This document shows, piece after piece, positions 1,692 to 46,513 of a stretch of 57,279 nt of DNA. Location: positions 1 through 57,279 of the IMG/VR virus record IMGVR_UViG_3300042309_002674; one strand, written 5' to 3'. The translations under genes were made by a program, and so were the position numbers. Each line of letters starts with the position of its first letter. Positions within the stretch are counted from its first letter, which is position 1. Below the pieces are notes generated by a model. That model made no database searches. It worked only from the letters and a program-made list of their open reading frames with translations, and was not told the DNA's origin. This stretch comes from a virus. Lineage: Duplodnaviria > Caudoviricetes.

Positions 1692-1751
1692 AATGTTGTT
1701 TTCCTTATTATATATACATTTTTTATTTTGTAAATTTATTTTTAAATCATT

Positions 1752-5597: not shown

Positions 5598-5608
5598 ATA
5601 CAGGTATT

Positions 5609-8134: not shown

Positions 8135-8141
8135 GATTTTT

Positions 8142-8147
8142 ATTACA
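8142..8147 (-). promoter_or_regulatory. Putative late promoter motif TGTAAT
   Basis: TGTAAT lies 7 nt upstream of the ATG at 8134 and overlaps the stop codon of the upstream gene. The same motif recurs before many genes. Confidence 0.4.
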
Positions 8148-9009: not shown

Positions 9010-9010
9010 A

Positions 9011-12162: not shown

Positions 12163-12163
12163 T

Positions 12164-22879: not shown

Positions 22880-22884
22880 TTTTG

Positions 22885-25962: not shown

Positions 25963-26265
25963 ATGAGCGATTTCTTAAACACAATACATCTTTTAACAGG
26001 ACAGCAGGCTCCATTTACTGGTCAATGGGCAGAAATTGGTCGTAGTCGTGAAAATCTATTTAGCGCATTTGGAACTACATCTGGCACAGTCAAATTACAG
26101 TATAGAAGTCCATTTTTTATAGATCAGGGCATTCCATTCTATGATATCGAATTAAGTGGATCTGGGTATGCAACGCCTGTTTTTTCAACCTCTCCAATGG
26201 GAGAGGTTAGAGCAATATCAAGTGGTAATGGCGCTTATTGGTGCGCAATCACTCAACAAAATTAA
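25963..26265 (+). CDS. Small hypothetical (likely structural) protein
   Basis: 100-aa ORF joined to the next gene by TAA-T-ATG. Confidence 0.6.
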   Translation: MSDFLNTIHLLTGQQAPFTGQWAEIGRSRENLFSAFGTTSGTVKLQYRSPFFIDQGIPFYDIELSGSGYATPVFSTSPMGEVRAISSGNGAYWCAITQQN

Positions 26266-26266
26266 T

Positions 26267-27865: not shown

Positions 27866-27895
27866 AAATTATTTAGGAAAAAAATAAAAATTAAC

Positions 27896-27901
27896 TGTAA
27901 T
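27896..27901 (+). promoter_or_regulatory. Putative late promoter motif TGTAAT
   Basis: CTGTAATATATA, 25 nt before ATG 27927. Confidence 0.55.
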
Positions 27902-27926
27902 ATATACTAAGAAAAAATAAAACACT

Positions 27927-28466
27927 ATGAATATCAAACCTCTACGTGCAGTCAATCAATATGACATTGTTCCGTTCTTCTCATATGACGGAGCAACTGC
28001 CAACAAGGGTACATTTGTTACCGCTGTTGGTCAAGGTCTAAATCTCAAAGACGAGCTAACGCTTGAAAATCTATCTTCTGTTGAAGGTACGCTTTCAGCA
28101 ACATTCAATGTTCCTTGGCTCGTAACAGCAGCCCCATCTGGCGCAGCAAAAGCAAGCGTTCTCGGAATGATGCTTAAAGATGTTCGCACAGTTGATGAAA
28201 ACGGCTACCCACTAATTTATGATCCACGTAAAGCAGCCGAAATGGATGTAACAGTAAGCGGACAAGCCGCTCCAGTTGCAACAAAAGGCTTTGTTCTTTA
28301 TAGCGGTATTGTCGGAACACCAGCCTTTGGTTCTGGTGCAGCAATCGCAGACGCTGGTGACGGCTCACTTAAGGTTGTCGCTGCAACTGACGCAAAATCA
28401 ATCGGACGTTTCCTAGGTCCTAAGAATGATCAAGGATATGCTCCATTGGAGTTCAATCTTAACTAA
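27927..28466 (+). CDS. Capsid decoration/cement protein
   Basis: 179-aa A/G/V-rich protein between scaffold and major capsid. Codon usage visibly like that of the capsid gene. Confidence 0.65.
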   Translation: MNIKPLRAVNQYDIVPFFSYDGATANKGTFVTAVGQGLNLKDELTLENLSSVEGTLSATFNVPWLVTAAPSGAAKASVLGMMLKDVRTVDENGYPLIYDPRKAAEMDVTVSGQAAPVATKGFVLYSGIVGTPAFGSGAAIADAGDGSLKVVAATDAKSIGRFLGPKNDQGYAPLEFNLN

Positions 28467-28497
28467 TTTAAAAGGAGAATAAATAAAATATAAAAAT

Positions 28498-29613
28498 ATG
28501 AAAATCGAATTCAAAAATACACCAGAGCAAGTAGCCTTAATCAAGGCTATGGCTTCTAACAATAAAGTCGAAGCCGCTGAGGCACAAGAAGCTTTTGCAG
28601 CTTTCTTAAGTCCAGTTGTTCAAGAAGTTTTGATGCACGCTGGATCAGCTGCTCAAATTTATCGTGACGAAGCATACAATGAGGATGATTCTCCTTCGTT
28701 CCCAATCGACACTCTTTTTGGTCAAGGATATGGCGACATTTCCATCTGGTCACAAACTGTCGGTGGCGGTCTCCCAACAAACGAAGTTGCAGGAGCAAGC
28801 GAAATCAAACTTCGCACATACGATCTCGATAGCGCAATCAGCTTCGATAAGCGTTATGCTCGCAGAGCACGCTTAAACGTTGTAGCTCGCTACATCGAAT
28901 TCGCAGCTAACCAACTCTTAGTAAAACAAGAGCGTAATGCATGGGCTGTTATCATGAAAGTTCTTGCTGACGCATCTTCAAATGGAAAAAATCACGTTTT
29001 CCGCTCAGCAACAGCCGGAACATTCATCCCTGACGATCTAAGCGCAGTATGGACACTAGTAAGCCGTTTCAATGCTGATTATCTCGGCGGAACATCAACA
29101 GCATCAGCTGCTGGACTTACAGATCTTTATGTCAGCCCAGAAATCAAAGCTCAAATTCGTGCGTTTGCTTACAACCCAGTAAACACACGCAGCGGAGCCG
29201 GAACAAGCGCTGGTAACGTTGCTCTTCCTGATGAAGTTCGTAGCCAAATCTATCGTAGCGCTGGAACATCCGAAATCTTCGGCGTAACAATTCACGAATT
29301 GCTAGAACTTGGCGAAAGCAAGAGATACAATGAACTCTTTGACTTCTTCGCTGGAAGCAAATCCTTCACAAAAGCTGACGGAACAAGCGGAGCCGCATTC
29401 AACAACTCAACAGATGAACTTCTAGTTGGTTTCGATATGGCCCGTGGATCTTTCCTACGCCCAGTTGAAACATATGACGACAATGGTGGTCAAGTTCAAA
29501 CATTCGTAGACGACCAATTCCAAGCTCGCGCAAACAAAATGGGCTGGTACATGAAACTACGCGAAGGTCGCGTATGTCTCGACAGCCGCGCAGTAGTTGG
29601 CTTGATTGTCTAA
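28498..29613 (+). CDS. Major capsid protein
   Basis: 371 aa in the canonical position, with biased high-expression codon usage and a following terminator. TDLYVSPE, EIFGVTI and C-terminal GW....EG...LD.RAV patterns are consistent with an HK97 fold. Confidence 0.82.
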   Translation: MKIEFKNTPEQVALIKAMASNNKVEAAEAQEAFAAFLSPVVQEVLMHAGSAAQIYRDEAYNEDDSPSFPIDTLFGQGYGDISIWSQTVGGGLPTNEVAGASEIKLRTYDLDSAISFDKRYARRARLNVVARYIEFAANQLLVKQERNAWAVIMKVLADASSNGKNHVFRSATAGTFIPDDLSAVWTLVSRFNADYLGGTSTASAAGLTDLYVSPEIKAQIRAFAYNPVNTRSGAGTSAGNVALPDEVRSQIYRSAGTSEIFGVTIHELLELGESKRYNELFDFFAGSKSFTKADGTSGAAFNNSTDELLVGFDMARGSFLRPVETYDDNGGQVQTFVDDQFQARANKMGWYMKLREGRVCLDSRAVVGLIV

Positions 29614-29641
29614 TCAAAGTTCAAAAAGCTAATCAAAGATT

Positions 29642-29673
29642 AAGCCCTGAGAAATCAGGGCTTTTTCTTTTTT
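29642..29673 (+). terminator. Rho-independent terminator
   Basis: AAGCCCTGA-GAAA-TCAGGGCTT hairpin followed by a T-rich tract after the capsid gene. Confidence 0.9.
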
Positions 29674-29737
29674 ATATTAAATATTAATTTAGAATTATAC
29701 CCAAACTCTTATTATAATAAATTAAATAAATAATATT

Positions 29738-30103
29738 ATGCCAAGAAAAAAACGCACATCTAAAGAAGTATTAAATCAAAATATTGAAATTGATGGTAAA
29801 ATTGCCGCAAATAAACCAACAGCATTAGAGCAAATTTGGGGCTCTGATGGATTATCTAAATATGGAACGATGGATATCGAAGTTTATACAGCGAAATTAA
29901 ATGATATGCTTCCTGTAGACCTTCAAAACCATGCCAGAGACGTTGGGTTGCGACCAGATGCAGAGCCACATCTTTTAAGAGAAAGATTAATAAATGAATT
30001 CCAAAGGCACGTTGCTTCTTTTAAATCTGGGCATGTGAACGTATCGTCTTCGCCATCTTCTTTGCCAAAAAGCGTTCATAAAATACTCAGAGAAGGCGCA
30101 TAA
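29738..30103 (+). CDS. Hypothetical protein (possible HeH/SAP-like helical motif)
   Basis: 121 aa. LNDMLPVDLQNHARDVGL...LRERL pattern. Confidence 0.6.
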   Translation: MPRKKRTSKEVLNQNIEIDGKIAANKPTALEQIWGSDGLSKYGTMDIEVYTAKLNDMLPVDLQNHARDVGLRPDAEPHLLRERLINEFQRHVASFKSGHVNVSSSPSSLPKSVHKILREGA

Positions 30104-30132
30104 TTTTCTAGATTAATTAAAGCACGATTGCG

Positions 30133-30138
30133 TGTAAT
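30133..30138 (+). promoter_or_regulatory. Putative late promoter motif TGTAAT
   Basis: ATTGCGTGTAAT (30127-30138) is identical to 33815-33826 and lies 7 nt before ATG 30146. Confidence 0.55.
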
Positions 30139-30145
30139 TAATAGC

Positions 30146-30694
30146 ATGCAATACCCTAAATGGTTTAATGATTTTGTAAATAATGTTTCTTCTGACTTGG
30201 GCGATAGAGACGATTATTCATACACTTATTTGGTTGGCTGGTTTTTAGATCCGGCAAATTTAGGTTATTTGAATAACCAAATAGATGGCTGTTTTCAAGT
30301 AACCCCATATTACTCAAATTTAAATAAAGTTACGGGGATAGGAATAGAGCCACCATTAGGCAATCAAGAACAAGCAATTTACAAGGCTAATTTTGATACG
30401 TTTTTTTATAATAGAGAGGCTAAAATGGCATTGTCTGGAGCTTACAATATTGGCGCGTGGACAACTTTAAAAGAAGGCGATTCAACTATTACAAGAGTTA
30501 ATAGATCTGAACTCGCTAGAACTTATCAAGGATTCCGCAAAGATGCTCAAGATAGCGCTAATAATTTAGTAAAACAATACCTTAAGTCCAAATCAAAACC
30601 ACAATCAGTTGACGGCACAGATGTTATTGATGGTGGTTATTGGGCCGAAGCTAATCGTAGTACATATTATCCAAGAAGTGAACCAGGTTTATAA
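30146..30694 (+). CDS. Putative head-tail adaptor (neck) protein
   Basis: Likely ATG 30146. Position after the capsid gene; W..LKEGDSTITR hairpin followed by a helix, as in adaptor proteins. Confidence 0.5.
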   Translation: MQYPKWFNDFVNNVSSDLGDRDDYSYTYLVGWFLDPANLGYLNNQIDGCFQVTPYYSNLNKVTGIGIEPPLGNQEQAIYKANFDTFFYNREAKMALSGAYNIGAWTTLKEGDSTITRVNRSELARTYQGFRKDAQDSANNLVKQYLKSKSKPQSVDGTDVIDGGYWAEANRSTYYPRSEPGL

Positions 30695-32674: not shown

Positions 32675-33760
32675 ATGAGCAGAAACCGTATTATATACCA
32701 ATCCCTAGGCGTATTTGCTAGCCAAGTTGCTGCGAGCGCAAACCAAACAGGAGTAGGGTCAGTTAAACAACTAACCCGTGTTCAATCTTTCGAGTCATCA
32801 TTTGAAAGAAATCTAGAAGACATTAACCAATTTGGTAACTTAGCTGCAATTGATCGCTTGGACACAGAGGCGCCAACAGTCAGCGCAACTTTGGAATACT
32901 ATCTAACAGATGGTGGAAATGAAAACCTTTTGGGTCTTTCAGTTACAAAAGGAGCCCAAGCGGGAGTTTCATGTATTTCAGGAATTCTTAAAAAAGAAAC
33001 TGATGAAAAGAATATTTACTTGATGGTAGCTAATGAAGGTAGTGATGCATCTAACTATGCAGGAACAACCGGAGTTGTTGGGCTTGGTAATGCATTTATT
33101 ACATCATACACATTAGATGTTGCTGTTGGAGAAATTCCATCAGCAACAGTTGAATTAGAGGCATTAAATGCAAGAATGTATGCCAATGCAACATCTACAG
33201 GAAATGCTGTTCCATCTGTAAATCCAGAAAATGGATTGCCTGTTGCAAATACATTTTTTGCACTACCACAGCACCAAACAAATGCTTATGGAACACAGCC
33301 AACCGCATTGCTACCAGGGGATGCAACTCTTGATGTAACAGGAATTGTTGGATGGGCCGGAAGTGATCTTAAAGTTCAAAGCGCTTCAATGAGTGTTGCT
33401 CTTGACAGAACGCCTCTTAATAAATTAGGAAGCCGCTTCTCGTTTGCTCGTGAAATCGACTTTCCAGCAACAGCCACTCTAGACGTTGAAGCCGAAGTTG
33501 GAGATTTGGCAAATGGAGATTTCTCCGATCTTCTTTGCCAAACTGGAACATACGACTTAACACTTAAACTCAAAAAGCTTGCATGTGGTGGAAGTGGAGA
33601 CTTCGCAATGATTGCCACCCTTAAAGGCGCAAAATTGGTAAGTCAAGATATTACAACATCAATTGGTGACAACGCAACGATGTCAGCTTCATTTGAAGTA
33701 CCAATTGGCGGACCAGAAGATAATAATCGCGGTATTTTTCTTTCAGGAACCTATCTCTAA
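32675..33760 (+). CDS. Major tail (tube) protein
   Basis: 361 aa rich in A/G/S/T. Two internally similar halves (RVQSFESSFERNLEDINQFG / KVQSASMSVALDRTPLNKLG). It has its own motif upstream and a terminator downstream, and precedes the chaperones and tape measure gene. Confidence 0.75.
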   Translation: MSRNRIIYQSLGVFASQVAASANQTGVGSVKQLTRVQSFESSFERNLEDINQFGNLAAIDRLDTEAPTVSATLEYYLTDGGNENLLGLSVTKGAQAGVSCISGILKKETDEKNIYLMVANEGSDASNYAGTTGVVGLGNAFITSYTLDVAVGEIPSATVELEALNARMYANATSTGNAVPSVNPENGLPVANTFFALPQHQTNAYGTQPTALLPGDATLDVTGIVGWAGSDLKVQSASMSVALDRTPLNKLGSRFSFAREIDFPATATLDVEAEVGDLANGDFSDLLCQTGTYDLTLKLKKLACGGSGDFAMIATLKGAKLVSQDITTSIGDNATMSASFEVPIGGPEDNNRGIFLSGTYL

Positions 33761-34102: not shown

Positions 34103-34894
34103 ATGAGCGAGCAAAGCGAAAATAATAATGGCGAGATTTTAGAACAAAACAAAGCAGCTTCAGATGCTGAGAAAGGCCCAGAGCAGGCTGAAGTCGTAAC
34201 TGAAGATTCTAAAAATAAAAACGATGTTGAGTTTGATAATAAAAAATGGCTATATGCATTTTATGGGAAAATTAATGGAGAGAATAAAAAGTTTTTCATA
34301 TTAAAACCAGGGCGTAGGTTAAGACAAGGCGGAGAGCTTGAATACGCAAAGCAGTTGGCGAAATTTGTTAAAGCGGGCTTATTGCCAAAGGCCGCTTGGG
34401 GAACTATATTGGATAATGCTGGGGGTACAATCTCGGAAACGGAAGCGGAATCTTATACTTCTGCAAAAAATAGGTTTTTTGAGTTAAGCTTGCGGCTGGG
34501 CTCATTACAACAGCAAGAAAAAAGCGAAGAAAATACAAGCGAAATCGAGCAGATAATGTTTGAAATTGAATCTGTTAAAAATCAAATTCAGGCATTTGAA
34601 CTTGAACAAATCTATATTTTTGAAAATACGGCAGAAGCAAAAGCTAGAAATTCTACAATCGAATGGTGGTTATGCAACCTTTCGTACGATGAAAATCAAG
34701 AGCCATTTTTTAAAGGGCAAGGTGTTGAAGAAAAGCTTGATTGGTATGATTCGTTAGATTCAAAAAACGATAGTGATGCTGATCTGCTAAAAATTGGCCA
34801 AAGATTTAGTTATTTAATAACGCTTTGGTTCTTGAATAGAATTGGGACACCAGATCAGTTTAAAGATGCAGATATCGCTAATGTTAAAAAATAA
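34103..34894 (+). CDS. Putative tail assembly chaperone (G-like)
   Basis: 263-aa acidic helical protein between tail tube and tape measure genes. Confidence 0.55.
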   Translation: MSEQSENNNGEILEQNKAASDAEKGPEQAEVVTEDSKNKNDVEFDNKKWLYAFYGKINGENKKFFILKPGRRLRQGGELEYAKQLAKFVKAGLLPKAAWGTILDNAGGTISETEAESYTSAKNRFFELSLRLGSLQQQEKSEENTSEIEQIMFEIESVKNQIQAFELEQIYIFENTAEAKARNSTIEWWLCNLSYDENQEPFFKGQGVEEKLDWYDSLDSKNDSDADLLKIGQRFSYLITLWFLNRIGTPDQFKDADIANVKK

Positions 34895-34905: not shown

Positions 34906-35910
34906 ATGGCAAATGATGTCAAAGAGTATATTATAGAAAATATCTTAGAGCATATCTTCTCTGGATATTCTGAATATTCGTTGGAAAACGAATTTGGAAA
35001 GCAAGTTTCAGTTTTTATAAAGCATCCATCTCAATCAGATGCTATCAAAATTTATAATCAATATAATCATTATTTTAATAAATATAAAAACGAAGGCTTA
35101 ATGTCTCAAGAAGAGCAACTGGCCTTTATTTGCGATAATGGATGGTGGTCGAAAGATAAAGAGAGCGAAATTTTATATGCCTCTGATTCTATAAAAAGAT
35201 TAGAACAAACAAAAAGAAAAATAATTTATGAATCTGACAGGAAAAGGATTGCCGATCAAATATCTGATTTAAAAAATAAACTCTTATTACTTGAAAGACA
35301 AAAATCAGAATATATTTCATCTACAGCGGAAGATTTAGCATCGCAAGAATCTTCTAGTTTCTTTGTGGAGAATTTTATTTTTATAGATAAAGATTTTAAA
35401 GAAAAGATAAATATATCTGATAATGACAATATTTTCAATAGCTGTTTGTTAATATATTATACATATTTAAATGATTTTTCTGCCTTGAATGTTAAAAAAG
35501 CAGCCCTTTCTTTAAATTTTCAAAATATGCTATACACATCTTCTGGGTCGTGTATGGATGTTTTTGGTGTTCCCGTAATTAAACTGACAAAATATCAAAC
35601 AGATTTGCTAATGTGGGGAAATTATTATCAAAAACTTGTTAAAAATTGCACAAAGGAAGTTCCTGAAGAATTGTACAAAGATCCAGATAAGTTTATAGAA
35701 TGGTATGAGTCGGTTAACAATATTGAAATAAATAAAAAAAATACCAAAAAAAGGAGAGATAAAAAAAGTAAATACGGCTCAGAATCCAAATTTTTATTTG
35801 GCGAAAGAGAAGAGGTTAAAAAAATAGGTGGGGAAATATCTGGCGATAAAATATTAAAAGAAGCAGAGAAGTCTGGCGGTTTTGGTATATACGATTTAAT
35901 GGAAAAATAG
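34906..35910 (+). CDS. Putative tail assembly chaperone (T/GT-like)
   Basis: 334 aa immediately before the tape measure gene, in the -1 frame relative to the upstream gene. Confidence 0.5.
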   Translation: MANDVKEYIIENILEHIFSGYSEYSLENEFGKQVSVFIKHPSQSDAIKIYNQYNHYFNKYKNEGLMSQEEQLAFICDNGWWSKDKESEILYASDSIKRLEQTKRKIIYESDRKRIADQISDLKNKLLLLERQKSEYISSTAEDLASQESSSFFVENFIFIDKDFKEKINISDNDNIFNSCLLIYYTYLNDFSALNVKKAALSLNFQNMLYTSSGSCMDVFGVPVIKLTKYQTDLLMWGNYYQKLVKNCTKEVPEELYKDPDKFIEWYESVNNIEINKKNTKKRRDKKSKYGSESKFLFGEREEVKKIGGEISGDKILKEAEKSGGFGIYDLMEK

Positions 35911-35968: not shown

Positions 35969-38900
35969 ATGGCTAGACCATCAATTCCAGTAGATGTAAT
36001 AGGTAATACAGCGCAGCTTAGAAGGCAAATAGAAGAGCTTTCTAAAACGCCTGTAGTTTTAAATATTCAAGGCGCTGGCGGCAGAGGCGCCAGAGGTTTA
36101 GAGAGACAATCTTCAGCTATATCTGATATAGGCACTGGGTTAGCTGCTGGTGGAGCAGCCGCCAGATCTTTCAATCAGCCCCTTGGAAAAATAAATGGAA
36201 ATGTATCTGAAATTGATAAATCTTTAGGTGCTGCCAATGCTCGCGTTATTGCTTTCGGAGCGGCTGCTGGTGGTATTTTCGCACTTCAAAATGCTGTGGG
36301 TCAATTATTTACTTCATTTGTAAATACAGAAAAAAAACTTGCAGAAATAAATACAGTTTTTAATCTTGATCAGGGAGGACTTAAATCTTTTGGAAAGCAA
36401 ATATTTAAAACCGCAGGGCAAACTGGGCAGTCGTTTGATACGGCAAGCGAAGCAGCGTTAGAATTTTCTAGACAAGGTCTTGGTGTTGAAGAGACAACAA
36501 AAAGAACAAGAGACGCACTTGTGTTGTCAAGGCTTAGTGGTCTTGATGCCGCTTCAAGCGTTAATGCGCTAACCGCTTCTGTAAACTCATACAGAAAAGA
36601 GGGAATTACAACCGGGCAAGTTGTTAATAAATTAGCAAATGTTGATGCTGGCTTTGCGGTAAGTTCTGCTGATTTGGCTGAAGCATTAAGTCGTGTTGGC
36701 TCTAGCGCCCAAGACGCTGGGGTGTCATTTGATGAATTAATTGCTCTTGTAACATCTGCACAACAAACAACTGCCCGTGGCGGTGCTGTAATTGGTAACT
36801 CATTAAAAACAATATTTACAAGATTAAATAGAGAGAAAACAACAGAACTCTTTGAAGGCTTGGGTATTTCTACATTAGACGAACAGGGAAATGAAAAAAA
36901 TCAAATTGGCCTATTGAAAGATCTTGCTGGTGTTTATGGCACGCTTGGAACACAGCAAAAAAACTATGTAGCTGAGCAGGTTGGTGGGGTGTTTCAATTA
37001 AACATATTAAAAGCTGCCTTATCTGACTTGGGTAGACAGTATTCTGTATATGATAGGGCATTACAAACATCTCTTGGGTCAACAAATCAGGCAGACAAAA
37101 GAAATGAACAATTAAATCAAACGTTGTCAGGTCTAGGCACTCAAACGCTTGCAAATGTTCAAAGCGCTGCTTCCACTATTGGCGGCGAACTGTTTGCTCC
37201 TGCAGCAAAAAATGTTTTAAATATCGGCAATTTTCTTGCTCAAGGAGTTAATGAATCTGAGAGTTCAAGTGTTGGTACGAAACTAGGTCAAGGTATAATT
37301 AGTGGACTAGGTTCTTTTTTAGGTGGACCAGGGTTGGCATTGATTGGTGCTGTTTTAGCAAAACTTTTTGGTGATTTTTCAAAATATGGAGCAAGTGCTG
37401 GCAAGAGCTTGTTGGGGCTAGATCAAGCAGCAAAAAATCAAGCAACAATCCAACAAAGCGTTGCTGGTTATTTACAAAAAAATGCAAGTCTTTATAGTGC
37501 AATAGCTAGCGGACAAACTTCAGTAACTTCGGCCGCAAAACAATATTTACAAGTTATAAATCAGCAGAGCGCAGCACTGCAAGCTCAAGCAGCTATAGCT
37601 AAACAAGTAGCAGCAGCTGTTACGGCAAATGTTGGTAGATCTGCAACAACCCCAGTAGTTGTGCCATCAACTGCGTCAGGAAAAAAAACAAGATTTTCTG
37701 GATTTATACCAAATTTTGGAACAAGAGATTATTATCAAGAAGTTGAAAATGCAGGCGCATCAAATCATAAGAATGGTTATAGGGCCGGTATATTGAAAGG
37801 AGTAACTGTTCATGACGGCATGGGTAATAAAGAGCGCGCTTGGATGACATCTAGAGAATCAAAAAAAACATTTACAAATGCTTCTGGTTTTAAAGCTACG
37901 CAAATAACGCCACCTAATGGTTTTAGTTCAGATACTATGATGGCAAGCTCTGGGTTTGTTCCAAATTTTGGAGCATTTAGAGGGCCAGTAACCAAAGAAG
38001 AAATTGAAATCGCCAAAAAACAAATGGCAGAATCTGGTCGCGCCGGATACTTAAAAAGAGTGGGCGCTGAACTTACAGATCAACAAATAGCAAAAGAGTT
38101 GAGAAATAGCACTTTACCAATGGATCCTGTTGGTAGGGGTAAAGCTTTAAATGACAAAATACAATCTTTAACTGAAGGTGCGGCTACCCGATTCAATAAG
38201 CAAGTTGCAATTATAAATCAAAGACGGCAATCTATTGGATTAGCTCCATTAACAGAATCTAGAATTGCGCAGCTAGAAAGTGCCGGAGCAAAGCAGCCGA
38301 CACAAAATGAGTGGAATGAGCTTTTTAAAAATCAATATAGAAAAATTAGTTCCGCGGAATATGACGCAGCTATAGCTAAAGATGCAAAATTAAGAGGTGA
38401 ATCTGGTTTTAGAAAGGGCGGTTATATAGCTAGACCAGATACTCCTGAAAATCAAGTAATTAATCTTGGTGATTTATCATCTAAACCAGGAGGGATTTCT
38501 TTAGTTCACTCAATGGAAAGGGGGCCACAAGCAATCACGGCGCAAACCCCAATAGACACAAAGAAGGGCGGGTCAGGAAAGGCTTATAGAGCTAGCGTAT
38601 TAACTTCTGGCATAGATACATCAGTTATAAAGGGGGCTCTGCCAAACACAAAGCAAAGAATGGAGGAAGCTGTAACTCAACTTGCAAATGATTTTGGTCG
38701 ATCTCTTGGCTTAAAAAATACATTAACAGTTGCAGATATTCCAAATGCTGGATCTGTAGCGAGCGCCGCTGGTGTTGCTTTTGAGCAGGCCCTAACAGGG
38801 TTTGTAAAAAGAAGCACAAGGAGAGCAGAAAATGCAAGGGTTGATTTTGCTGATCCTACTAATTTAAGAAAATTTTTCTATAATATACCAGGCATGTATG

Positions 38901-41900
38901 AAGCAAAACAAAATCCTGGTCCTAAAAACGTTCAAGATGTTATAAAAAAATATGTTGATACAAACAAAGAATTTCAGTCAGAGGCGGCAAGGGTAAAAAA
39001 ACCAAATATTGCTCCTTTTCGTGCTGGAAAATGGACGCCTAGTCCAGAAGAGCAAAAAAAACTTGAAGCTCTAAAATCACAACCCAAAACAAATAATCCA
39101 TATTTGCAAGCTTATTCTGGATTTATTCCGAATTTTGGCCCAAACATAGCCGCTATACAAAAGCTAATGACTCAAGGAGCAACGTCTGGTGAGAGACAGG
39201 CAGCTTTTGCTGCTATGCAAAGAATTCAATCAAATGCATTATCTAAGCTTGGAACTGGAGATAAATTAACAAAATTTAGAGAACTTTTGTATGGATCAAA
39301 ATCTAATGCCGGTTTTAATCTTGATGCTATAAAAATAAAAGATTTAAAGTATAAGCCTCTCCTTGCTGGTGCAAAAGAACTGGGTTTAAGCATGAAAGAT
39401 TTAGAATTGCTTGCTGGCAATCCAATTGCTATAAATCAGCTTAGAGGTTTAAGCGGTAAAACTAAATCTTCCTCATTTGCAAAAGGATTTTTACCATCTG
39501 GGTCTGGACAAAAATTAAATCCATTACTTGGAAGAAATAAATTTCAAGCAAATTGGATAAAAGAATTTGCTAAAAAAAATAATATTGATTTAAAAAATCC
39601 AGATGCAATGTTCAAAATTGCTTCTGCTTTTGCTAAAAAATATCCAAATGAACAGTCTATGTTTGGTTTTAATTCAGGCTTTATTCCCAATTTTGCTTCT
39701 GAATTTAAAACTGCACAAAAAAGAGCGGTAGGTGCTGAAAAATTATTTGGTAAGGGTGCTGTTATGGACGAATATAAAGGAATGAGCTACGTTCGTCAAC
39801 CTGGCCAATCATCTAATTTTAAAACAATGATGAAGCAGGATCATCCTGAGGGCTTTAAAGCTGCTGTGCAAAATTCAGCTGTTTCTCAAGGACTATCTCG
39901 CGGTTTTATACCTAATTTTGCGCCGAATGAAGAAGAATATGGCGGAGGATTAACGGCCTCTGCTCTTCAAGGGCTTTTGATGACGCTGGCTTTTACTTTA
40001 CCTCAAAGAGGATCAATGGCAGAGGGCATTGAACAAGAGCGCAGAAAAAATGCAGAGGCATTTATTAAAAAAAGATCAGAAGATCAAAAGTTTGAAGCGC
40101 AAAGAAGGGCTAACCAACAAAGATCAGATGCAGTTAGACAAAAACAATCTATTTTGAGCGAAAGAAGATCTGGAAAAATTACACAAGAAGAAGCTAGAAA
40201 AAAATATAATAACATTAACAAGGTCATAGCAAGCTCTGGTGAGGATTTAAAAAAATCTTTTATAAAGATAGATGAAAATTTACAAAAATCTAATGAAAGA
40301 TTGTCAACGAATCAAAAATATTTATCTAGAATAAATGAAGTTGCATTAAAAAATGCTGGAGCTACTGGTCGAGGCGCAAGCTTATTTGGCAAAGCTGCAT
40401 CTATTATACCTGGCGTTTCTCAAGAAAAGGCAGTTGCTGGGTTTGAGGGGTTAAAACAAAAAGGCAGAGGTATACGTGAATCACAAATATTTAAAGGGCC
40501 TGGCGCAGGGCTTGGCGGCGCAATAGCCGCACCTATATTAGCTGAAACAATAGCGGCGGAACTGGGCAGAGATACTACTGGGGGTCGAGTAGCAAGCGCG
40601 GCAGGCAATGCAGCTTCTTTTGCTTTAACTGGCGCAGCAATCGGTGGACCAAAGGGAGCATTGGTTGGCGGTCTTGTTGGTGGCGGAATGCTACTCAATG
40701 AAATAATAACTGCCAGAGGAAGTACGCTATCTGAAACATCTAAAGAGTCTGAAAAAGCAACTCAAGAAGCTGGAAGAATTAATGATTTAGCAGGTCAGGC
40801 GCTAAGTGATATTGGAGACTATTATGAAGCAGTTGGTTCGCAAGGGCCAGATTCAAAAAAAGCAAAAAAACTTAAAAAACAATTAACATCAACAATATCT
40901 AAATTTGGCCCAGACAGCGCTAAAAAATTATTCGAAGCTTTTTATCAAGGTCCAGAAAAATTTCAAGAAGAAATTGGCAAACAGCAAGACCAAGCAACTA
41001 AAGAACAAAAAACTCGTGAAGCCGGACAAGCATTATCAAAAATTTCAGAAGGTACTAGGGCTAGAAAAAGCTTTGCTGGTATTTTTACATCTCAGCTTCC
41101 AGATTTATTATTCGGTCAAGAAACAAAAGGTGGATTAAAAGGTTATACTTCGGATCTAGAAAAAGAAAATATTTCTGATACTGTTAGGCAGGGCTTGTTT
41201 GGTGGACTCGGCAGTCAAGAAATTCTTGATAGGGTTGAAAAAGATTTTGGCGGGGCAGGTAATTTAATAAAAATATTTACTGACGCTGAAGCAGCAACAA
41301 AAAAATTTGAAAAAAGAGTTAAAGAGCTTGGTGGTACTGGCGGTAGAAGTTTAGAAAAATTTGCTGAATCAATGGAATATGTTTATGGATCAAGCGAAGG
41401 CAAAGAGTTTTTAAGCACAATAGATAAGCAAAAAAAAGCACTACTAGATTTAACCGAAAAAGGTTTTGGCGCTTCACTTTCTGAATCTGGCAGAAAAGCA
41501 TTTTTAGAAAATTTAGATGTAACTGCTCTTAGGCAAGTTGGTGGAGATGTTGCTAAAGACATTGTAGATGCAAGGGGTATAATAAAACAAGAGGAAGATG
41601 TTAGAACTACACGTGGGGAATCAAACCAAATGCGCGTTGCCCAACAGATGGCAAAAGTACAATCTGAAATGCAAGATTATACTGGCCGAGGTGGAGAATC
41701 ATTTGGTGAAATAATTTCATCTTATCAAACAGGGGAGCTTAATAAGCTTGAAAGACAAAGATTGGCAGGCCCAACCCCAGACATAATAAGCTATAATGAA
41801 GAGAGAGAAGCCAAAAGACAAGAAAGAATTCAAAAATCACAAAGAAGATTAGATTTCTTACAGCAATACGGCGTCAAAGGTGGTAAATCCGATATGCAAA

Positions 41901-44900
41901 GTATCATTCAAGAGGCATATGGTGCAAGAATCGCAGAGGCTGAAGATCTTGGAATTGCTAACATGCCGGGGCTTAAACAGTCTATATTTGAAAATATAAG
42001 AAGACAAGTTTATGGTTTTGCTGGCAGAGGAGATGAAACGGCGCAATATGAAGTGGATATGAAAGCTGATGCGAAAAGGCGCCAGCAAGCCATGCCAGAA
42101 TATATTCAAAAAAAATCTCAATTTGAACAACAAATATCAGGATATGGGGCAGAACAGCTTGTTAAAGAGCAAGAGAAAGTAAAGAGCAATTTAGGCATAC
42201 AGCAAGAGCTATTGGGTTTAATGAGATCAGAGGCTGGAATGACTGGAGAGGGCGCTGCCCAAAAAATGATTCAAGGTATTGACAGAGAAATACAAGACAT
42301 GGGTCCTGTTTTTTCTTACGAAAAAGACAGACAAGACCAATTGCAGTCTTTAATTGAAAAAAGAAGTCAGGTTGAGAATTACTTACCTCAGTTAAGGCAA
42401 ACTAGTGATGATTATAATGTTATAAGGGGGCAAGAAGCAGGGTCAGAAATGATGATTCAAAGCATGCAGCAAATGCTTCAATCGCTAAGACAAGGAACGA
42501 AAGAACAGCCATCAGTGCCAGCTGAAGATAAGGATGCGTCAGGTAAGGCCACCAATCAGGCCGCAGCCAATATGGCCACTTCTGCAGATAAAATAGCTAG
42601 CGCAAGCGAAAAAGCTGCAAGCGCAATGTCAGCATTTGCCACAAGCGCAGCGTCTTCAATTGAAAAGTTGACAGCTTTATCTGCAATGCCAACGCCAGCA
42701 TCAAATGCCCCAAATACCTCTGCTATGGGATTTATACCTAATTTTGCAATGCCAAGCAAAAAAAATATAAATCAAACAAAAAATTTAGAATCTTTTGCTT
42801 CTGGAAAAACGGCTACATATCATACAAATCCATTTCCACACGTTAGAAATGCAGGACAGCCAACTTTTGGCTCGGCAATGAGAGATCATGGCGGATTAGA
42901 AAATGCACTCAATGATTCAGCAGAAATGCAGAAAAATTTTGCATCAGGATTTATTCCAAATTTTGCATCGTTTGGGGAGATTAAAGCTAAATTTAGTTCA
43001 AAGCCAGAATATTCTACAGCCTTTGGTAAAATTGATAAAATCAAAGATTTTTTTACAAATTTTAGAGCACCAGAGTTACCAATCCCTAATTTTGCTTATA
43101 ATCCAGAAATGGTTCCGGGCAATACCCCAAGAGCTATGAAAAAAGCCTTTGCAAATGTGCAGGAGGTTATTGCTATTGTATCTCAAAATTTAGGTTTTAA
43201 TGCCGGAAATGTAAATACGCCAACAAGCATGTCTACTGGAAAATACGGGCAAAAAGGGCGAGCGTTTGCTGCAGTAACAACAAGCAGTATGGGAGATAGC
43301 AATGTTTGGTTTTCTGACAGGCTGGGCAGAGGTAACACATTGGGGATTATAGCAAATGAGGCAACTCACGTGAATCAAGGTTTGAATATTTTGTATGATA
43401 GAAATTCATATACTAATAAGTTAAAATCCTTTACTGATTTTCTAGAATCAAAAGGTATGGTTACAGGAGCGCAAAGTGGCGGTGGGTTTAGCGATAATAG
43501 AAGGATTGCTTTTACCACAACTCAAGAAGACAGCATGGCTTCAATACAGAATAAAAAGAAAGAAATACAGGAAAAAGCAGACTTTAGTTTTAAAAAAGAT
43601 ATCTTAAAATCGGAATCTGAAATGTCTCAATTTGCAAAAATTACAACATCATCTTTGTCACAAAAAATTAGAGAACAATCAGAAAAAACATCTTCGACGG
43701 TAAAAAACCAACATGATAAAACATTAAGAGATATAGAGAACAGTTTTAATAAAAATCAATCATTGGCAAATCAAGAAATAGCGAATTTTGATCAAACGGT
43801 ATCTAGAAGACGAGGCGGTATAGGCTCTGAATTTAATCATTCTGGCGATCAGCAGGCGTATGAAACAGAGAGACTTTCATCATTAATGCATGGTTTGGTA
43901 AGTGGAATTCAGGTAGGAAATATAAATGCTCAAGACTTGGTTTCGTCTGGTGCTGCTGCAAATTACGATCAGGCAGTCCAAATAATCGAATCGGTGTCTG
44001 GCGCTGAGCAAATGCTTAGGAATTCAGGTATAAATGCTGCTCGCGGATTTATTCCGAACTTTTCAAATAGAAATTTGGCTGGGGTTTTAGAAAAGTTTCA
44101 AGCAAAAAATGCCAATTACAGATCTGGAATATTAAAAACTGTAACCGCACATGATGGTTTGGGAAACAGTTTTAAAACTTATGCTAATTCAAGAGAAGCA
44201 ATAACAAGAGGAACGAATGACTTGGGATATAAGGCAACTATGATTGAGCCACCAAATGGATTTAATTTTGCAGCAAAAGGTTATATTCCAAACTTTGCAC
44301 CTCGTGGCGGCGTTCGTGTTAAAAATAATTTTCAGCGCCAAATGAAAGAAGCATCAAATACTCGCCAAAAACTTTTGGGTCTAGATGAAACAACACAAAA
44401 AGCTATGGCAGAAGCGGCCGAGCAGAGACGTTCAGAAGCAGCTTATAGAGAACTTGAAAGAAGAAAAAATTCATCAATAGATGATGCAGTCAAATCCGAC
44501 CTAACTTCGGAATGGCAGAGGTTAATTGATTGGGGTAATGATCCTGATTATACTAGTAGACCAGATACGCTAAGATCGTATCTTGAACAAGATAAAGCTG
44601 CGCGCGCTAGATATGACAGGATGCAAGCTGCTATGTCTGGAAAAGAAAAAATAAATGAAAATTTTGAATTGGATACCAGAAACAGAATATCTCAGAGACT
44701 ACAAGAAAATAAAATAGATTTATCTCAACCAGAAAACCTGTCTCCTGATCAGAAATCTCGGGCATTTAAAATAGCAGAAGAGGAATGGGCCAAAAATATA
44801 GGAAGCCCAACGCTTGGTCCTGATAAGAAAATTGTTGGAAACTATCCTTCTGGATTTGAAAGCCCTATAGATAAACAGCAAATTCCTTGGAGTAGTGAAA

Positions 44901-46513
44901 TTGGCCGTCCTATTATTGATCAAGATCGTGATGTTGCCAGAGCGGCTGCTGCAAGCAGGCGTGAACCCAGATATAAAGATCCAGTAACTGGCGAGGTAAA
45001 GGATATACCTGGCGGGCTTCCAAGTCTTGATGGAGAATCTCAATATGGACAATTTATAGAAAGCGTTAAACCTCTTGGGTATAGCTTGCCTACAGATTCG
45101 GGCCCTTCACCAGCATATGAGGTAAAATATGGGGGATGGCAAAGAAATACAGAAGCCGATATAACTAGAAATTATATGGAGCAATATGGATTTGGCAAAG
45201 GTGGTATGGAGGGGTATGCTGCGAAAGTAAATGAAAAAATTAAAGTGCTTGAAGGGCCATCCCCAGCACAGGCACAGGCTCTTAACCTCGCCCAAACAGC
45301 TGTTAACGGTGCTATGGGTGGTTGGGGGGCCTTTGGCGGTGGGCTGGCAGAAACTCCAGAAGGTTTAGAAATAATTAAGAGGTCAAGAGAGTGGGCTTTT
45401 AAAAATGCCGGTGATCCCTCAGCGCAAATACCTTTATCAGATTTATTACCAGATAATTTAAGAGAGTCTATTAGGGGAAACACTCGCAAAAATACGCCAA
45501 ATACTTCATCTGAGTCTAGGCTCTCAAAGCCAATTTCAAATGAGAAAACTTATCCAAATACAAGCCCTGTTTCTCGAAAAGAAACACCAATTGGCAAAAG
45601 TGCTGCCAATGCGCCAAGTACGTTTTCTAATTTTGGTGGTAATAATAATTTGCCATTAACTCAATATACTCAAGCTTCTGCGGCACTTACCGAAGCCAGT
45701 CGCGCCATAAATGAAATGTCAAATTTTCCATCTTTTGGTTCGCAGCCAATGTTGGGATCATCAGCGCCGTTAACAAACTTATCAGATAGTTCTATAAATG
45801 GCATCCAGCAAGGAATGGAAAACGCTATTAAAAATAGTGCCCCTGCAATGTCTAACAGTAGTTTTGGGATGACGCCGCCACCATCATACCAACCGGTCCC
45901 ATATACCACTTCGCCTGGTGGTTCTGCTATTGCTCCAAACCCATCGACAATGGGCGCAGACCCTACACAGCTTGCGCGACAATCAGCGCTTTCATATGCT
46001 AATACTGATAAACCCGTATATGATTTTAATTATACAGCATCTCAAACACCTGCGCCTGTTTCTAATGCTCCTTACGTACAACCACCTTCTCCACAAGCTC
46101 CACCAGCACCACAAGCACCACAAGCACCACAGCAACAAGGCGGAGGCACATCTTTTCAATCTTTAGAACAGGCAATTAAATCAGCAGAGCAAACCATAAA
46201 AGCCTCAGAGCAGACTGTAAAATCTGCAGAGCAAGCCGTAAGAGAATTGGCAAACAAGAATAATAACAAAGACGATGGCGGTAATGGGGGCCAAAATGCT
46301 GATGTAACTTTAGAAGTTAATGTAGATGTTGACCCTCCAGAGGTAAGTATAGATTTAAATGTTGATACTAAAGACTTATCTTCACAGCTTGCATCGTTAC
46401 CAAGTGAAGTTATGGGGGCAATACAGCCAACAATAAATCAAATACAAACAGAATTAACAAGAGTAAAACAAGAGATAGCAATTCTTTTCCAGTCTTTGAG
46501 TAATAACAGGTGA
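35969..46513 (+). CDS. Tail tape measure protein (TP901-type core) with multiple G[FY][IV]PNF-delimited modules
   Basis: 3514 aa. N-terminal TP901/PhageMin_Tail-like core (EFSRQG, LANVDAGFAVSSADLAEALSRVGS, GNSLKTIFTRL), Gly/Ala hydrophobic segments, long helical regions and canonical position. Confidence 0.9.
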   Translation: MARPSIPVDVIGNTAQLRRQIEELSKTPVVLNIQGAGGRGARGLERQSSAISDIGTGLAAGGAAARSFNQPLGKINGNVSEIDKSLGAANARVIAFGAAAGGIFALQNAVGQLFTSFVNTEKKLAEINTVFNLDQGGLKSFGKQIFKTAGQTGQSFDTASEAALEFSRQGLGVEETTKRTRDALVLSRLSGLDAASSVNALTASVNSYRKEGITTGQVVNKLANVDAGFAVSSADLAEALSRVGSSAQDAGVSFDELIALVTSAQQTTARGGAVIGNSLKTIFTRLNREKTTELFEGLGISTLDEQGNEKNQIGLLKDLAGVYGTLGTQQKNYVAEQVGGVFQLNILKAALSDLGRQYSVYDRALQTSLGSTNQADKRNEQLNQTLSGLGTQTLANVQSAASTIGGELFAPAAKNVLNIGNFLAQGVNESESSSVGTKLGQGIISGLGSFLGGPGLALIGAVLAKLFGDFSKYGASAGKSLLGLDQAAKNQATIQQSVAGYLQKNASLYSAIASGQTSVTSAAKQYLQVINQQSAALQAQAAIAKQVAAAVTANVGRSATTPVVVPSTASGKKTRFSGFIPNFGTRDYYQEVENAGASNHKNGYRAGILKGVTVHDGMGNKERAWMTSRESKKTFTNASGFKATQITPPNGFSSDTMMASSGFVPNFGAFRGPVTKEEIEIAKKQMAESGRAGYLKRVGAELTDQQIAKELRNSTLPMDPVGRGKALNDKIQSLTEGAATRFNKQVAIINQRRQSIGLAPLTESRIAQLESAGAKQPTQNEWNELFKNQYRKISSAEYDAAIAKDAKLRGESGFRKGGYIARPDTPENQVINLGDLSSKPGGISLVHSMERGPQAITAQTPIDTKKGGSGKAYRASVLTSGIDTSVIKGALPNTKQRMEEAVTQLANDFGRSLGLKNTLTVADIPNAGSVASAAGVAFEQALTGFVKRSTRRAENARVDFADPTNLRKFFYNIPGMYEAKQNPGPKNVQDVIKKYVDTNKEFQSEAARVKKPNIAPFRAGKWTPSPEEQKKLEALKSQPKTNNPYLQAYSGFIPNFGPNIAAIQKLMTQGATSGERQAAFAAMQRIQSNALSKLGTGDKLTKFRELLYGSKSNAGFNLDAIKIKDLKYKPLLAGAKELGLSMKDLELLAGNPIAINQLRGLSGKTKSSSFAKGFLPSGSGQKLNPLLGRNKFQANWIKEFAKKNNIDLKNPDAMFKIASAFAKKYPNEQSMFGFNSGFIPNFASEFKTAQKRAVGAEKLFGKGAVMDEYKGMSYVRQPGQSSNFKTMMKQDHPEGFKAAVQNSAVSQGLSRGFIPNFAPNEEEYGGGLTASALQGLLMTLAFTLPQRGSMAEGIEQERRKNAEAFIKKRSEDQKFEAQRRANQQRSDAVRQKQSILSERRSGKITQEEARKKYNNINKVIASSGEDLKKSFIKIDENLQKSNERLSTNQKYLSRINEVALKNAGATGRGASLFGKAASIIPGVSQEKAVAGFEGLKQKGRGIRESQIFKGPGAGLGGAIAAPILAETIAAELGRDTTGGRVASAAGNAASFALTGAAIGGPKGALVGGLVGGGMLLNEIITARGSTLSETSKESEKATQEAGRINDLAGQALSDIGDYYEAVGSQGPDSKKAKKLKKQLTSTISKFGPDSAKKLFEAFYQGPEKFQEEIGKQQDQATKEQKTREAGQALSKISEGTRARKSFAGIFTSQLPDLLFGQETKGGLKGYTSDLEKENISDTVRQGLFGGLGSQEILDRVEKDFGGAGNLIKIFTDAEAATKKFEKRVKELGGTGGRSLEKFAESMEYVYGSSEGKEFLSTIDKQKKALLDLTEKGFGASLSESGRKAFLENLDVTALRQVGGDVAKDIVDARGIIKQEEDVRTTRGESNQMRVAQQMAKVQSEMQDYTGRGGESFGEIISSYQTGELNKLERQRLAGPTPDIISYNEEREAKRQERIQKSQRRLDFLQQYGVKGGKSDMQSIIQEAYGARIAEAEDLGIANMPGLKQSIFENIRRQVYGFAGRGDETAQYEVDMKADAKRRQQAMPEYIQKKSQFEQQISGYGAEQLVKEQEKVKSNLGIQQELLGLMRSEAGMTGEGAAQKMIQGIDREIQDMGPVFSYEKDRQDQLQSLIEKRSQVENYLPQLRQTSDDYNVIRGQEAGSEMMIQSMQQMLQSLRQGTKEQPSVPAEDKDASGKATNQAAANMATSADKIASASEKAASAMSAFATSAASSIEKLTALSAMPTPASNAPNTSAMGFIPNFAMPSKKNINQTKNLESFASGKTATYHTNPFPHVRNAGQPTFGSAMRDHGGLENALNDSAEMQKNFASGFIPNFASFGEIKAKFSSKPEYSTAFGKIDKIKDFFTNFRAPELPIPNFAYNPEMVPGNTPRAMKKAFANVQEVIAIVSQNLGFNAGNVNTPTSMSTGKYGQKGRAFAAVTTSSMGDSNVWFSDRLGRGNTLGIIANEATHVNQGLNILYDRNSYTNKLKSFTDFLESKGMVTGAQSGGGFSDNRRIAFTTTQEDSMASIQNKKKEIQEKADFSFKKDILKSESEMSQFAKITTSSLSQKIREQSEKTSSTVKNQHDKTLRDIENSFNKNQSLANQEIANFDQTVSRRRGGIGSEFNHSGDQQAYETERLSSLMHGLVSGIQVGNINAQDLVSSGAAANYDQAVQIIESVSGAEQMLRNSGINAARGFIPNFSNRNLAGVLEKFQAKNANYRSGILKTVTAHDGLGNSFKTYANSREAITRGTNDLGYKATMIEPPNGFNFAAKGYIPNFAPRGGVRVKNNFQRQMKEASNTRQKLLGLDETTQKAMAEAAEQRRSEAAYRELERRKNSSIDDAVKSDLTSEWQRLIDWGNDPDYTSRPDTLRSYLEQDKAARARYDRMQAAMSGKEKINENFELDTRNRISQRLQENKIDLSQPENLSPDQKSRAFKIAEEEWAKNIGSPTLGPDKKIVGNYPSGFESPIDKQQIPWSSEIGRPIIDQDRDVARAAAASRREPRYKDPVTGEVKDIPGGLPSLDGESQYGQFIESVKPLGYSLPTDSGPSPAYEVKYGGWQRNTEADITRNYMEQYGFGKGGMEGYAAKVNEKIKVLEGPSPAQAQALNLAQTAVNGAMGGWGAFGGGLAETPEGLEIIKRSREWAFKNAGDPSAQIPLSDLLPDNLRESIRGNTRKNTPNTSSESRLSKPISNEKTYPNTSPVSRKETPIGKSAANAPSTFSNFGGNNNLPLTQYTQASAALTEASRAINEMSNFPSFGSQPMLGSSAPLTNLSDSSINGIQQGMENAIKNSAPAMSNSSFGMTPPPSYQPVPYTTSPGGSAIAPNPSTMGADPTQLARQSALSYANTDKPVYDFNYTASQTPAPVSNAPYVQPPSPQAPPAPQAPQAPQQQGGGTSFQSLEQAIKSAEQTIKASEQTVKSAEQAVRELANKNNNKDDGGNGGQNADVTLEVNVDVDPPEVSIDLNVDTKDLSSQLASLPSEVMGAIQPTINQIQTELTRVKQEIAILFQSLSNNR
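46085..46240 (+). repeat. Low-complexity tandem repeats in TMP C-terminus (PQA repeats; 7-aa xKSAEQx repeats)
   Basis: GCACCACAA-like 9-bp units encode PQAPPAPQAPQAPQQQ, followed by EQAIKSAEQTIKASEQTVKSAEQAV. Confidence 0.75.

Follow-up and report, generated by a model that had tools for sequence, protein, structure and literature searches.

The window analysed here is the whole of an IMG/VR virus record (57,279 bases; CheckV completeness 37%). Between positions 35969 and 46513 of its plus strand runs one unbroken frame of 3514 amino acids (P0001), whose predicted product is a tape measure protein (TMP) of the TP901 type. A short peptide, G[FY][IV]PNF, recurs nine times in this protein. Across the family to which the protein belongs, it is a family-specific junction peptide, conserved at the protein level and set in flexible linkers, that marks the exact borders of exchangeable cassettes. 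We identify the product as a TMP because PF10145 (PhageMin_Tail) matches aa 147-340 with 96.4 bits against a cut-off of 33.2 (E 2.6e-27), and because eight PHROG TMP families match within aa 85-790, the best at 1.1e-44. PF10145 is the sole Pfam match of the whole protein at E ≤ 0.1. An earlier reading of the letters alone (the sequence-only reading) had also called this gene a TMP, and the Pfam match bears it out. The gene and its parts are laid out as follows.

35969-46513, plus strand: TMP gene P0001, a single open reading frame (ORF) matching PF10145 and eight PHROG TMP families
36407-36988, plus strand: PF10145 domain (aa 147-340; Pfam), within a conserved block of aa 1-577
37700-37717, plus strand: motif 1, GFIPNF (aa 578)
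37718-37951, plus strand: cassette D, copy 1 (aa 584-661), a short first module homologous to cluster C of the relatives (clustering; hhalign, 93.8%)
37952-37969, plus strand: motif 2, GFVPNF (aa 662)
37970-39118, plus strand: cassette s2 (aa 668-1050), a helical N-terminal part followed by an A domain (about aa 830-1008, nt 38456-38992; hhalign, 99.3%)
39119-39136, plus strand: motif 3, GFIPNF (aa 1051)
39137-39676, plus strand: cassettes P and Q (aa 1057-1236), fused over a decayed GFLPSG (aa 1173, nt 39485-39502)
39677-39694, plus strand: motif 4, GFIPNF (aa 1237)
39695-39901, plus strand: cassette E, copy 1 (aa 1243-1311), a short last module (clustering)
39902-39919, plus strand: motif 5, GFIPNF (aa 1312)
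39920-42727, plus strand: tape segment of 936 aa (aa 1318-2253; hydropathy and composition), Gly-rich and hydrophobic at aa 1326-1345 and 1507-1582
42728-42745, plus strand: motif 6, GFIPNF (aa 2254)
42746-42946, plus strand: cassette E, copy 2 (aa 2260-2326), in the same cluster as copy 1
42947-42964, plus strand: motif 7, GFIPNF (aa 2327)
42965-44044, plus strand: cassette W (aa 2333-2692; cluster W), holding a decayed LPIPNFA (aa 2370-2376, nt 43076-43096)
44045-44062, plus strand: motif 8, GFIPNF (aa 2693)
44063-44278, plus strand: cassette D, copy 2 (aa 2699-2770), in the same cluster as copy 1
44279-44296, plus strand: motif 9, GYIPNF (aa 2771)
44297-46510, plus strand: C-terminal region (aa 2777-3514), in which one stretch is rich in Pro and Gln and the C-terminus is heptad-like (translation)

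The nine motif copies, together with two degenerate ones (GFLPSG at aa 1173, nt 39485, and (LP)IPNFA at aa 2372, nt 43082), all lie where the sequence-only reading had placed them. No copy arose when the protein was shuffled 2000 times, and none turned up outside the TMP frame when all six frames of the window were scanned. Compared pairwise, the copies are identical at 13-17 of 18 nt, with exact runs of up to 17 nt, most of them 12 nt or shorter. Synonymous codon use within the motif agrees with the gene background (292 copies in 80 genes of the family). Since the codons differ among copies and synonymous use follows the gene, conservation is at the level of the protein, as had been claimed from this one sequence. 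The description of two motif clusters around a segment of about 940 aa also held up: the segment measures 936 aa and starts with Gly-rich hydrophobic stretches. By hydropathy and composition, such stretches occupy aa 441-471, 1326-1345 and 1507-1582 of the TMP, and the last motif of the first array, at aa 1312, directly precedes the one at aa 1326-1345.

A word-seeded search with aa 560-1340 collected 55 giant proteins of 2002-4812 aa, among them the window's own protein under a second handle, P0002, with its start called further downstream. The motif is present in all 54 giant relatives, in 4-12 copies each. The logo drawn from 403 copies in the 55 giant TMPs reads [AL]-[AS]-[SGA]-G-[F83/Y15]-[I53/V44]-P-N-F-A. 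Its G, P and N are conserved in 100% of copies, the final F in 98% and the A that follows in 79%, and information content is at background level beyond positions -3 to +6. The N-terminal block (aa 1-577 in the window's protein) forms a single cluster in 53 of the 55 proteins.

Patterns built from the single protein matched no close relatives in IMG/VR; an alignment-based scan supplied them, with at least 556 stretches encoding a relative among 595 pattern matches. We retained 80 loci from that scan, on contigs of up to 178 kb. Each has 2-9 motif copies in the TMP frame, and none was found in other frames of at least 60 aa across these loci. An exhaustive HMMER search with a profile of the A domain reached 523 cluster representatives at E ≤ 0.001. 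Nearly all of the best 150 of these are long proteins carrying the A domain at about residue 600-1300. The strict motif is missing from six of the 135 proteins that were new from this search and occurs once in 15; the low-copy proteins that we inspected have altered peptides at the corresponding junctions, for example GHIPNF, GFVPNY and GYIPNY. Other family proteins are rich in a ...PNY junction variant, and a distant subgroup has G-[FY]-[IM]-P-R-F-A (for example GYIPRF and GFMPRF; also GNIPRF). Variants cluster within proteins, giving 17 same-protein pairs against a shuffle mean of 5.4, a value reached in 2 of 2000 shuffles.

Two irregular arrangements of the peptide were seen in passing. In P0172, a member of the Arg-variant subgroup, tandem junction peptides stand at about aa 880-930 with no cassette between them (...GYIPRFAKGRIPRFAKG...VQRFARG...). 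The C-type first modules of loci L017-L076 (for example L024:11483-11821) end in a conserved GFNPYA, two residues before GFIPNFA. This pseudo-copy resembles a junction peptide that was duplicated long ago and has since diverged; it is missing from the D-type module of the window.

To describe the architecture, we cut 135 proteins at the motif (56 from the database and 79 encoded in the loci), leaving out L047, whose longest frame is not the TMP, the duplicate P0002 and the fragment P0057. The cuts gave 588 internal segments in 103 BLAST clusters, with 57 singletons. C-A-B is the commonest architecture (18 proteins), followed by C-G-B (14) and C-A-E (9), and expanded members have up to 11 inserted cassettes in a partly conserved order. 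Profile comparison with hhalign gave a probability of 93.8% for C with D, 93% for A with G and 99.3% for the window's s2 with cluster A. Because the profiles join C to D and A to G, and place an A domain within s2, the core of the family is, by sequence comparison, an N-terminal TMP block, motif, first short module (C/D), motif, A domain, motif, last short module (B/E), motif and tape.

The window's protein can be written as D-[x+A]-P(decayed junction)Q-E, the 936-aa tape, E-W-D and the C-terminal region. P was assigned by cluster P, and the Q part by eye to the consensus of first-round cluster 14 (later cluster Q). The second array is common to one subgroup only, and cluster W has four members, namely the window's protein, P0012, P0044 and P0045. 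The sequence-only reading had suggested asking whether the segments between motifs vary among relatives while the motif is kept. They do, in 54 of 54 giant relatives, where segments differ in number, type and order.

The way in which cassettes come and go was visible in alignments of seven closely related pairs, which contain 20 indels of at least 40 aa. All five indels in the array region begin and end 0-2 aa from the G of a motif, and each consists of one or two cassettes plus an equal number of motif copies. Another starts immediately behind the last motif and stops within the tape, and the remaining 14, unrelated to the motif, lie in the tape region. P0016 and P0020 are 98% identical except for a 204-aa cassette and a tape duplication. 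Between P0021 and P0024 one cassette has only 14% identity, against 87-96% for the cassette after it and the six segments before it and 75% for the terminal tape; P0008 and P0023 likewise differ by one replaced cassette (16% identical). These alignments show cassettes gained, lost, duplicated and replaced as units of a cassette plus one motif, and the cassette architecture as a whole is well supported.

The tape duplication of P0020 relative to P0016 is a tandem one of 115 aa (aa 2661-2775) with GIAGNKQGYARG at both ends. Judged from this alignment, tape length changes by a route other than cassette exchange.

We modeled the first array (aa 560-1330, 771 residues) with AlphaFold2 from 62 aligned arrays, obtaining a mean pLDDT of 66.9. 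The D module (model residues 27-88) is predicted as a helix and four strands, with block-mean pLDDT of 65-89 over model residues 21-90. A helical part follows at model residues 117-249 and the A domain at 271-449, where block means are about 90 with dips to 67-79; the P cassette is helical. Every motif of the first array, the decayed one included, has pLDDT below 50 and no secondary structure, and lies between folded domains. The sequence-only reading had described the inter-motif segments as discrete modules, and for the first cluster the model agrees with it.

Folded alone, the A domain reached a pLDDT of 80.7 and a pTM of 0.67. Both alignments show its columns G935, F938, E939, K980 and K994 as invariant; in alignment A3, D959 is invariant as well. 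The conserved E939, D959, [DE]978-x-K980 and K994 resemble a PD-(D/E)xK pattern, which is weak evidence alone. A PDB profile search gave nothing significant (best E 0.078), Foldseek gave no match at E ≤ 0.001, and the best VIA-align match (Z 3.7, rmsd 4.0, 59 aligned residues) is not a nuclease. With no significant match from any of the three, we regard a PD-(D/E)xK nuclease assignment as unsupported. Fold searches with the 771-residue model returned generic helical matches only, and neither PDB nor Pfam gave a significant match to the C/D-module profile.

Enzymatic domains are recognisable in relatives, where Pfam puts each of the following inside a single inter-motif segment. GNAT (PF00583) scored 26.0 bits in P0018 and 22.2 bits in P0028 against a cut-off of 20.7, is weaker in P0037, and was found in 4 of 15 further relatives scanned. 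P0046 has an ART-PolyVal ADP-ribosyltransferase (6.7e-25) and DUF7178 (8.6e-20). Most cassette types have no family match. Pfam finds no GNAT cassette in the window's protein; phmmer against PDB sequences with s2, W and the C-terminal region gave nothing at E <0.3; and the ESM Atlas held no usable match for W or the A domain. A search for free-standing cassettes among shorter proteins found no W and, for array 1, only a 108-aa fragment and a partial TMP of 1817 aa. The sequence-only reading had proposed that the arrays carry interchangeable effector domains. GNAT, ART-PolyVal and DUF7178 in relatives favour that idea and no assigned cassette of the window does, so the case is drawn from relatives because the window's own cassettes are without an assigned activity. 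As a separate observation, one relative among the 15 in alignment A4 has a Pfam T2SSF match (type II secretion protein F; 6.2e-05).

Five genes upstream of the TMP gene are conserved in 70-78 of the 80 loci, and none of them received a PHROG or Pfam name. The two nearest are:

34103-34894, plus strand: conserved upstream gene 1, 263 aa (tblastn match in 76 of 80 loci)
34906-35910, plus strand: conserved upstream gene 2, 334 aa, directly before the TMP gene (tblastn match in 78 of 80 loci)

These two genes occupy the position usual for G/GT, the TMP chaperones. We rejected a G/GT-type frameshift between them: among 69 loci the second ORF is in the +1 frame in 24, in the -1 frame in 24 and in the same frame in 21, and no slippery site is conserved across these loci. 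The window's ORF1 has AAAAAATAA at its end, and ORF2 follows it in the -1 frame. Complex predictions for the two upstream proteins with TMP aa 565-680 scored 0.09, 0.45 and 0.00 against a mark of 0.32, values that were obtained without controls and on which we make no call.

Further from the TMP gene, the window resembles locus L009 closely. Identity between the two is 87-95% for ORFs in the 25963-30694 region, and 95% for the 371-aa ORF at 28498-29613. The L009 TMP has 1680 aa against 3514, contains two motifs, and its N-terminal block is 54% identical to that of the window's protein. Taken with L008, the comparison with window positions 25963-30694 shows a strong mosaic gradient toward the tail. 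For the tube-like ORF the identity with L009 is 73%; in the window a putative tube protein is encoded at 32675-33760. The ORF at 28498-29613 matched nothing among PDB sequences at E <0.3 (phmmer).

The phage as a whole is very poorly annotated, with only a weak terminase-like match at 17599-19503 and a weak cement-protein match at 22882-24717. The left arm (258-13363, minus strand) has very large ORFs of 1281, 841, 678 and 477 aa; the four were scanned and gave no Pfam match at E ≤ 0.01. GC content is 0.37-0.41 over window positions 36001-46000, in the TMP gene, compared with 0.30-0.32 in the neighbouring tail genes, and is likewise high (0.42) in the bin at 28001-30000.

As to the host, 18 loci on genome contigs belong to metagenome-assembled genome (MAG) bins labelled with several different phyla, and the phage contigs in these bins are probably mis-binned. 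Because the bins span several phyla and mis-binning is likely, we make no host call. The contigs L088-L100, which encode the TMP family and fall in bins of several phyla, are a caution against reading a host from a bin name.

What might the junction peptide do? We tentatively favour, as a possibility a little short of probable, that it is the processing site of a "polyvalent" TMP. The conserved scaffold of such a protein would be the N-terminal PF10145 block, the hydrophobic and helical tape and the C-terminal region, into which two arrays of independently folding cassettes would have been inserted. Every cassette is bounded by an [AS]-[SGA]-G-[FY]-[IV]-P-N-F-A peptide in a flexible linker, and a single common factor would presumably read all copies. 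The peptide would mark the sites at which the TMP polyprotein is cut, either during tail maturation or after ejection. The freed cassettes, in the tail lumen or in the host, would be expelled before the DNA, as T5 does once with its muralytic domain. That they are delivered into the host is something we infer from general TMP biology.

Three considerations favour processing. The TMP of T5 is a precedent, being cut beside a hydrophobic stretch so that an enzymatic domain is freed and expelled. Three copies of tethered, folded domains of 20-30 kDa would be sterically awkward in a narrow tube unless they were released or unfolded. Finally, viral polyproteins commonly have long conserved cleavage sites. 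The likeness of all copies of the peptide, and the joint switch of whole lineages to another variant (PRF, PNY), make it probable that the copies share one reader. If this reader is a protease, it is probably not the prohead protease, since the motif occurs in no head gene or other gene of the window or of the 80 loci. The sequence-only reading had pointed to the ORF at 26156-27865 as a protease; we could not sustain this, as that ORF has no PHROG, Pfam or PDB sequence match (phmmer, E <0.3).

Several observations weigh against the putative cleavage, protease and delivery. Pfam detected no peptidase domain in the 21 family proteins scanned, where divergent ones are possible. Six contiguous, near-invariant residues are equally typical of a docking epitope, and the clustering of variants within proteins may reflect shared ancestry or duplication instead of a common reader. 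The three conserved modules of minimal members (C, A and B) may be structural or injection parts and not cargo, and the near-universal modules C/D and A belong to no recognisable family or fold. GNAT cluster F, found in 24 of 135 proteins, is the sole common cassette type with an assignment, and the window's own cassettes received none by Pfam, PDB sequence, ESM Atlas or shorter-protein search. Among 50,697 deposited phage records, none of the 25 matches listed extends beyond aa 106-433; that collection therefore holds no cultured member.

A bolder form of the processing idea, which we consider rather doubtful, is that the TMP is a self-loading cargo polyprotein. The tube would assemble around the TMP, the chain would be cut at every G[FY][IV]PN[FY], and the free effectors would be fired ahead of the DNA. 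The lumen would then contain a stoichiometric stack of acetyltransferases, ADP-ribosyltransferases and dozens of unassigned folds. Seen this way, the peptide would act as a portable tag that says "cut and load here", and a siphophage tail would carry the arrays as a fast-exchanging arsenal.

The alternative that survives best is that the peptide is a docking or assembly motif and is never cut. It would bind one partner repeatedly, whether the tube lumen, a chaperone (for which either of the two conserved upstream proteins is a candidate) or a host factor that would ratchet the ejected chain inward, and each cassette would be held or threaded in an ordered or unfolded state. We think this less than likely, yet nearly as likely as processing. 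The peptide is contiguous, sharply bounded, rich in aromatic residues and set in disordered linkers, as short linear binding motifs typically are; the two genes just upstream are conserved alongside the TMP gene in 76 and 78 of 80 loci; and lineage-wide variants such as PRF and PNY would suit co-evolution with a partner. However, copies of the motif are confined to cassette borders and absent from the tape, where a tube-contact motif might also be expected, and any partner is a putative one.

It is improbable, though less so than the two readings that follow, that the motif is an inter-chain element, at which three TMP chains would pair as short strands and so keep the trimer in register at the cassettes. 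TMPs are trimeric in the lumen according to the work on T5 (PMC10038345), and the motif brackets every non-tape insert. Against this, the monomer model has no structure at the motif, and P0172 has tandem motifs with no intervening cassette.

A recombination scar, in which an 18-nt repeat merely provides microhomology for shuffling and the peptide has no role of its own, seems very improbable. Indels of exactly a cassette plus one motif are the signature of direct-repeat exchange, and the extent of nucleotide identity among copies (13-17 of 18 nt, exact runs up to 17 nt) would permit it. Yet the amino acids are invariant while synonymous sites vary as the background does, most exact runs are 12 nt or shorter, and the motif is kept in minimal members of three modules and in relatives only about 20-55% identical to the window's protein. 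A pure DNA "recombination linker", one of the roles offered by the sequence-only reading, thus fails to explain the protein-level conservation.

Self-cleavage at the invariant Asn, of the asparagine-lyase type found in some virus capsid maturations and here triggered by assembly between the N and F of PNF, would suit an Asn present in 100% of 403 copies and followed by Phe in 98%, but is scarcely credible because the distant subgroup has Arg, which is incapable of this chemistry, in place of Asn at homologous junctions (GYIPRF, GFMPRF, GNIPRF), and the motif is unstructured in the model.

If the peptide is a processing or loading signal, these phages would carry many host-directed proteins in the tail and not in the head, and the roughly one hundred uncharacterised cassette types would be candidate early-acting effectors or anti-defence proteins. 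It would also explain why some TMPs are far longer than their tails need, such as a TMP in the window twice the length of that of L009 despite ORFs 87-95% identical in the 25963-30694 region. Searching for the motif and mutating it are both simple, which makes the hypothesis directly testable in a cultured or expressed member.

Our literature search found no paper that mentions "GFIPNF", and none, in the portions of the literature covered, that describes a motif-bounded cassette architecture in a TMP. Several known systems share single features with it. Mycobacteriophage TMPs, such as that of TM4, have peptidoglycan-hydrolase motifs embedded in the tape. They are alike in holding small functional modules within a tape, but these are single cell-wall motifs that are not known to be bounded by a repeated junction peptide or exchanged as cassettes. 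MARTX toxins are giant polypeptides whose strain-variable effector array is released by cleavage in the linkers between domains. Unlike the proteins described here, they are secreted by bacteria and have their own cysteine protease domain and Gly-rich repeats, none of which was detected in this family. In extracellular contractile injection systems (eCIS/PVC), according to bioRxiv 10.64898/2026.05.27.728243, a TMP sets the length of a phage-tail-like tube, payload proteins travel within its lumen, and a short sequence tag directs their loading. There the cargo is separate, N-terminally tagged and loaded by an AAA+ ATPase; in the present family the candidate cargo belongs to the TMP chain. We see MARTX toxins and eCIS lumen cargo as functional analogues.

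Nearest in concept are processed TMPs of the T5 type and what Iyer et al. (2017) call polyvalent proteins. Like lambda gpH, T5 pb2 is a TMP with which the present protein can be compared: it has an enzymatic domain and, in T5, is cut during tail morphogenesis beside a hydrophobic stretch. The cut falls after R1127, between the hydrophobic stretch and the muralytic domain, and both parts remain in the lumen until they are expelled at infection (PMC10038345). The window's protein is like it in arrangement only, with the motif at aa 1312 lying between a non-tape domain and the hydrophobic stretch at aa 1326-1345. T5 has one cleavage, one muralytic domain and no repeated peptide, while the window's family has 2-12 junctions, variable cassettes and putative cleavage.

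According to Iyer et al. (2017, PMC5512222), phages and conjugative elements encode very large polyvalent proteins in which GNAT and ART occur along with numerous uncharacterised domains. Such proteins grow by accreting domains in the course of evolution, and the proposal is that they accompany the DNA into the host and undergo processing. The main text of that paper nowhere uses the word "tape"; its external or supplementary architecture files may include a TMP-linked example, one candidate being the uncultured Mediterranean phage protein that the paper cites. In that account polyvalent proteins differ from the window's family in being packaged in the head and processed by zincin-like peptidases, with no conserved junction peptide described. 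They are like it in being giant and multi-domain and in having GNAT and ART domains, which occur here in the relatives.

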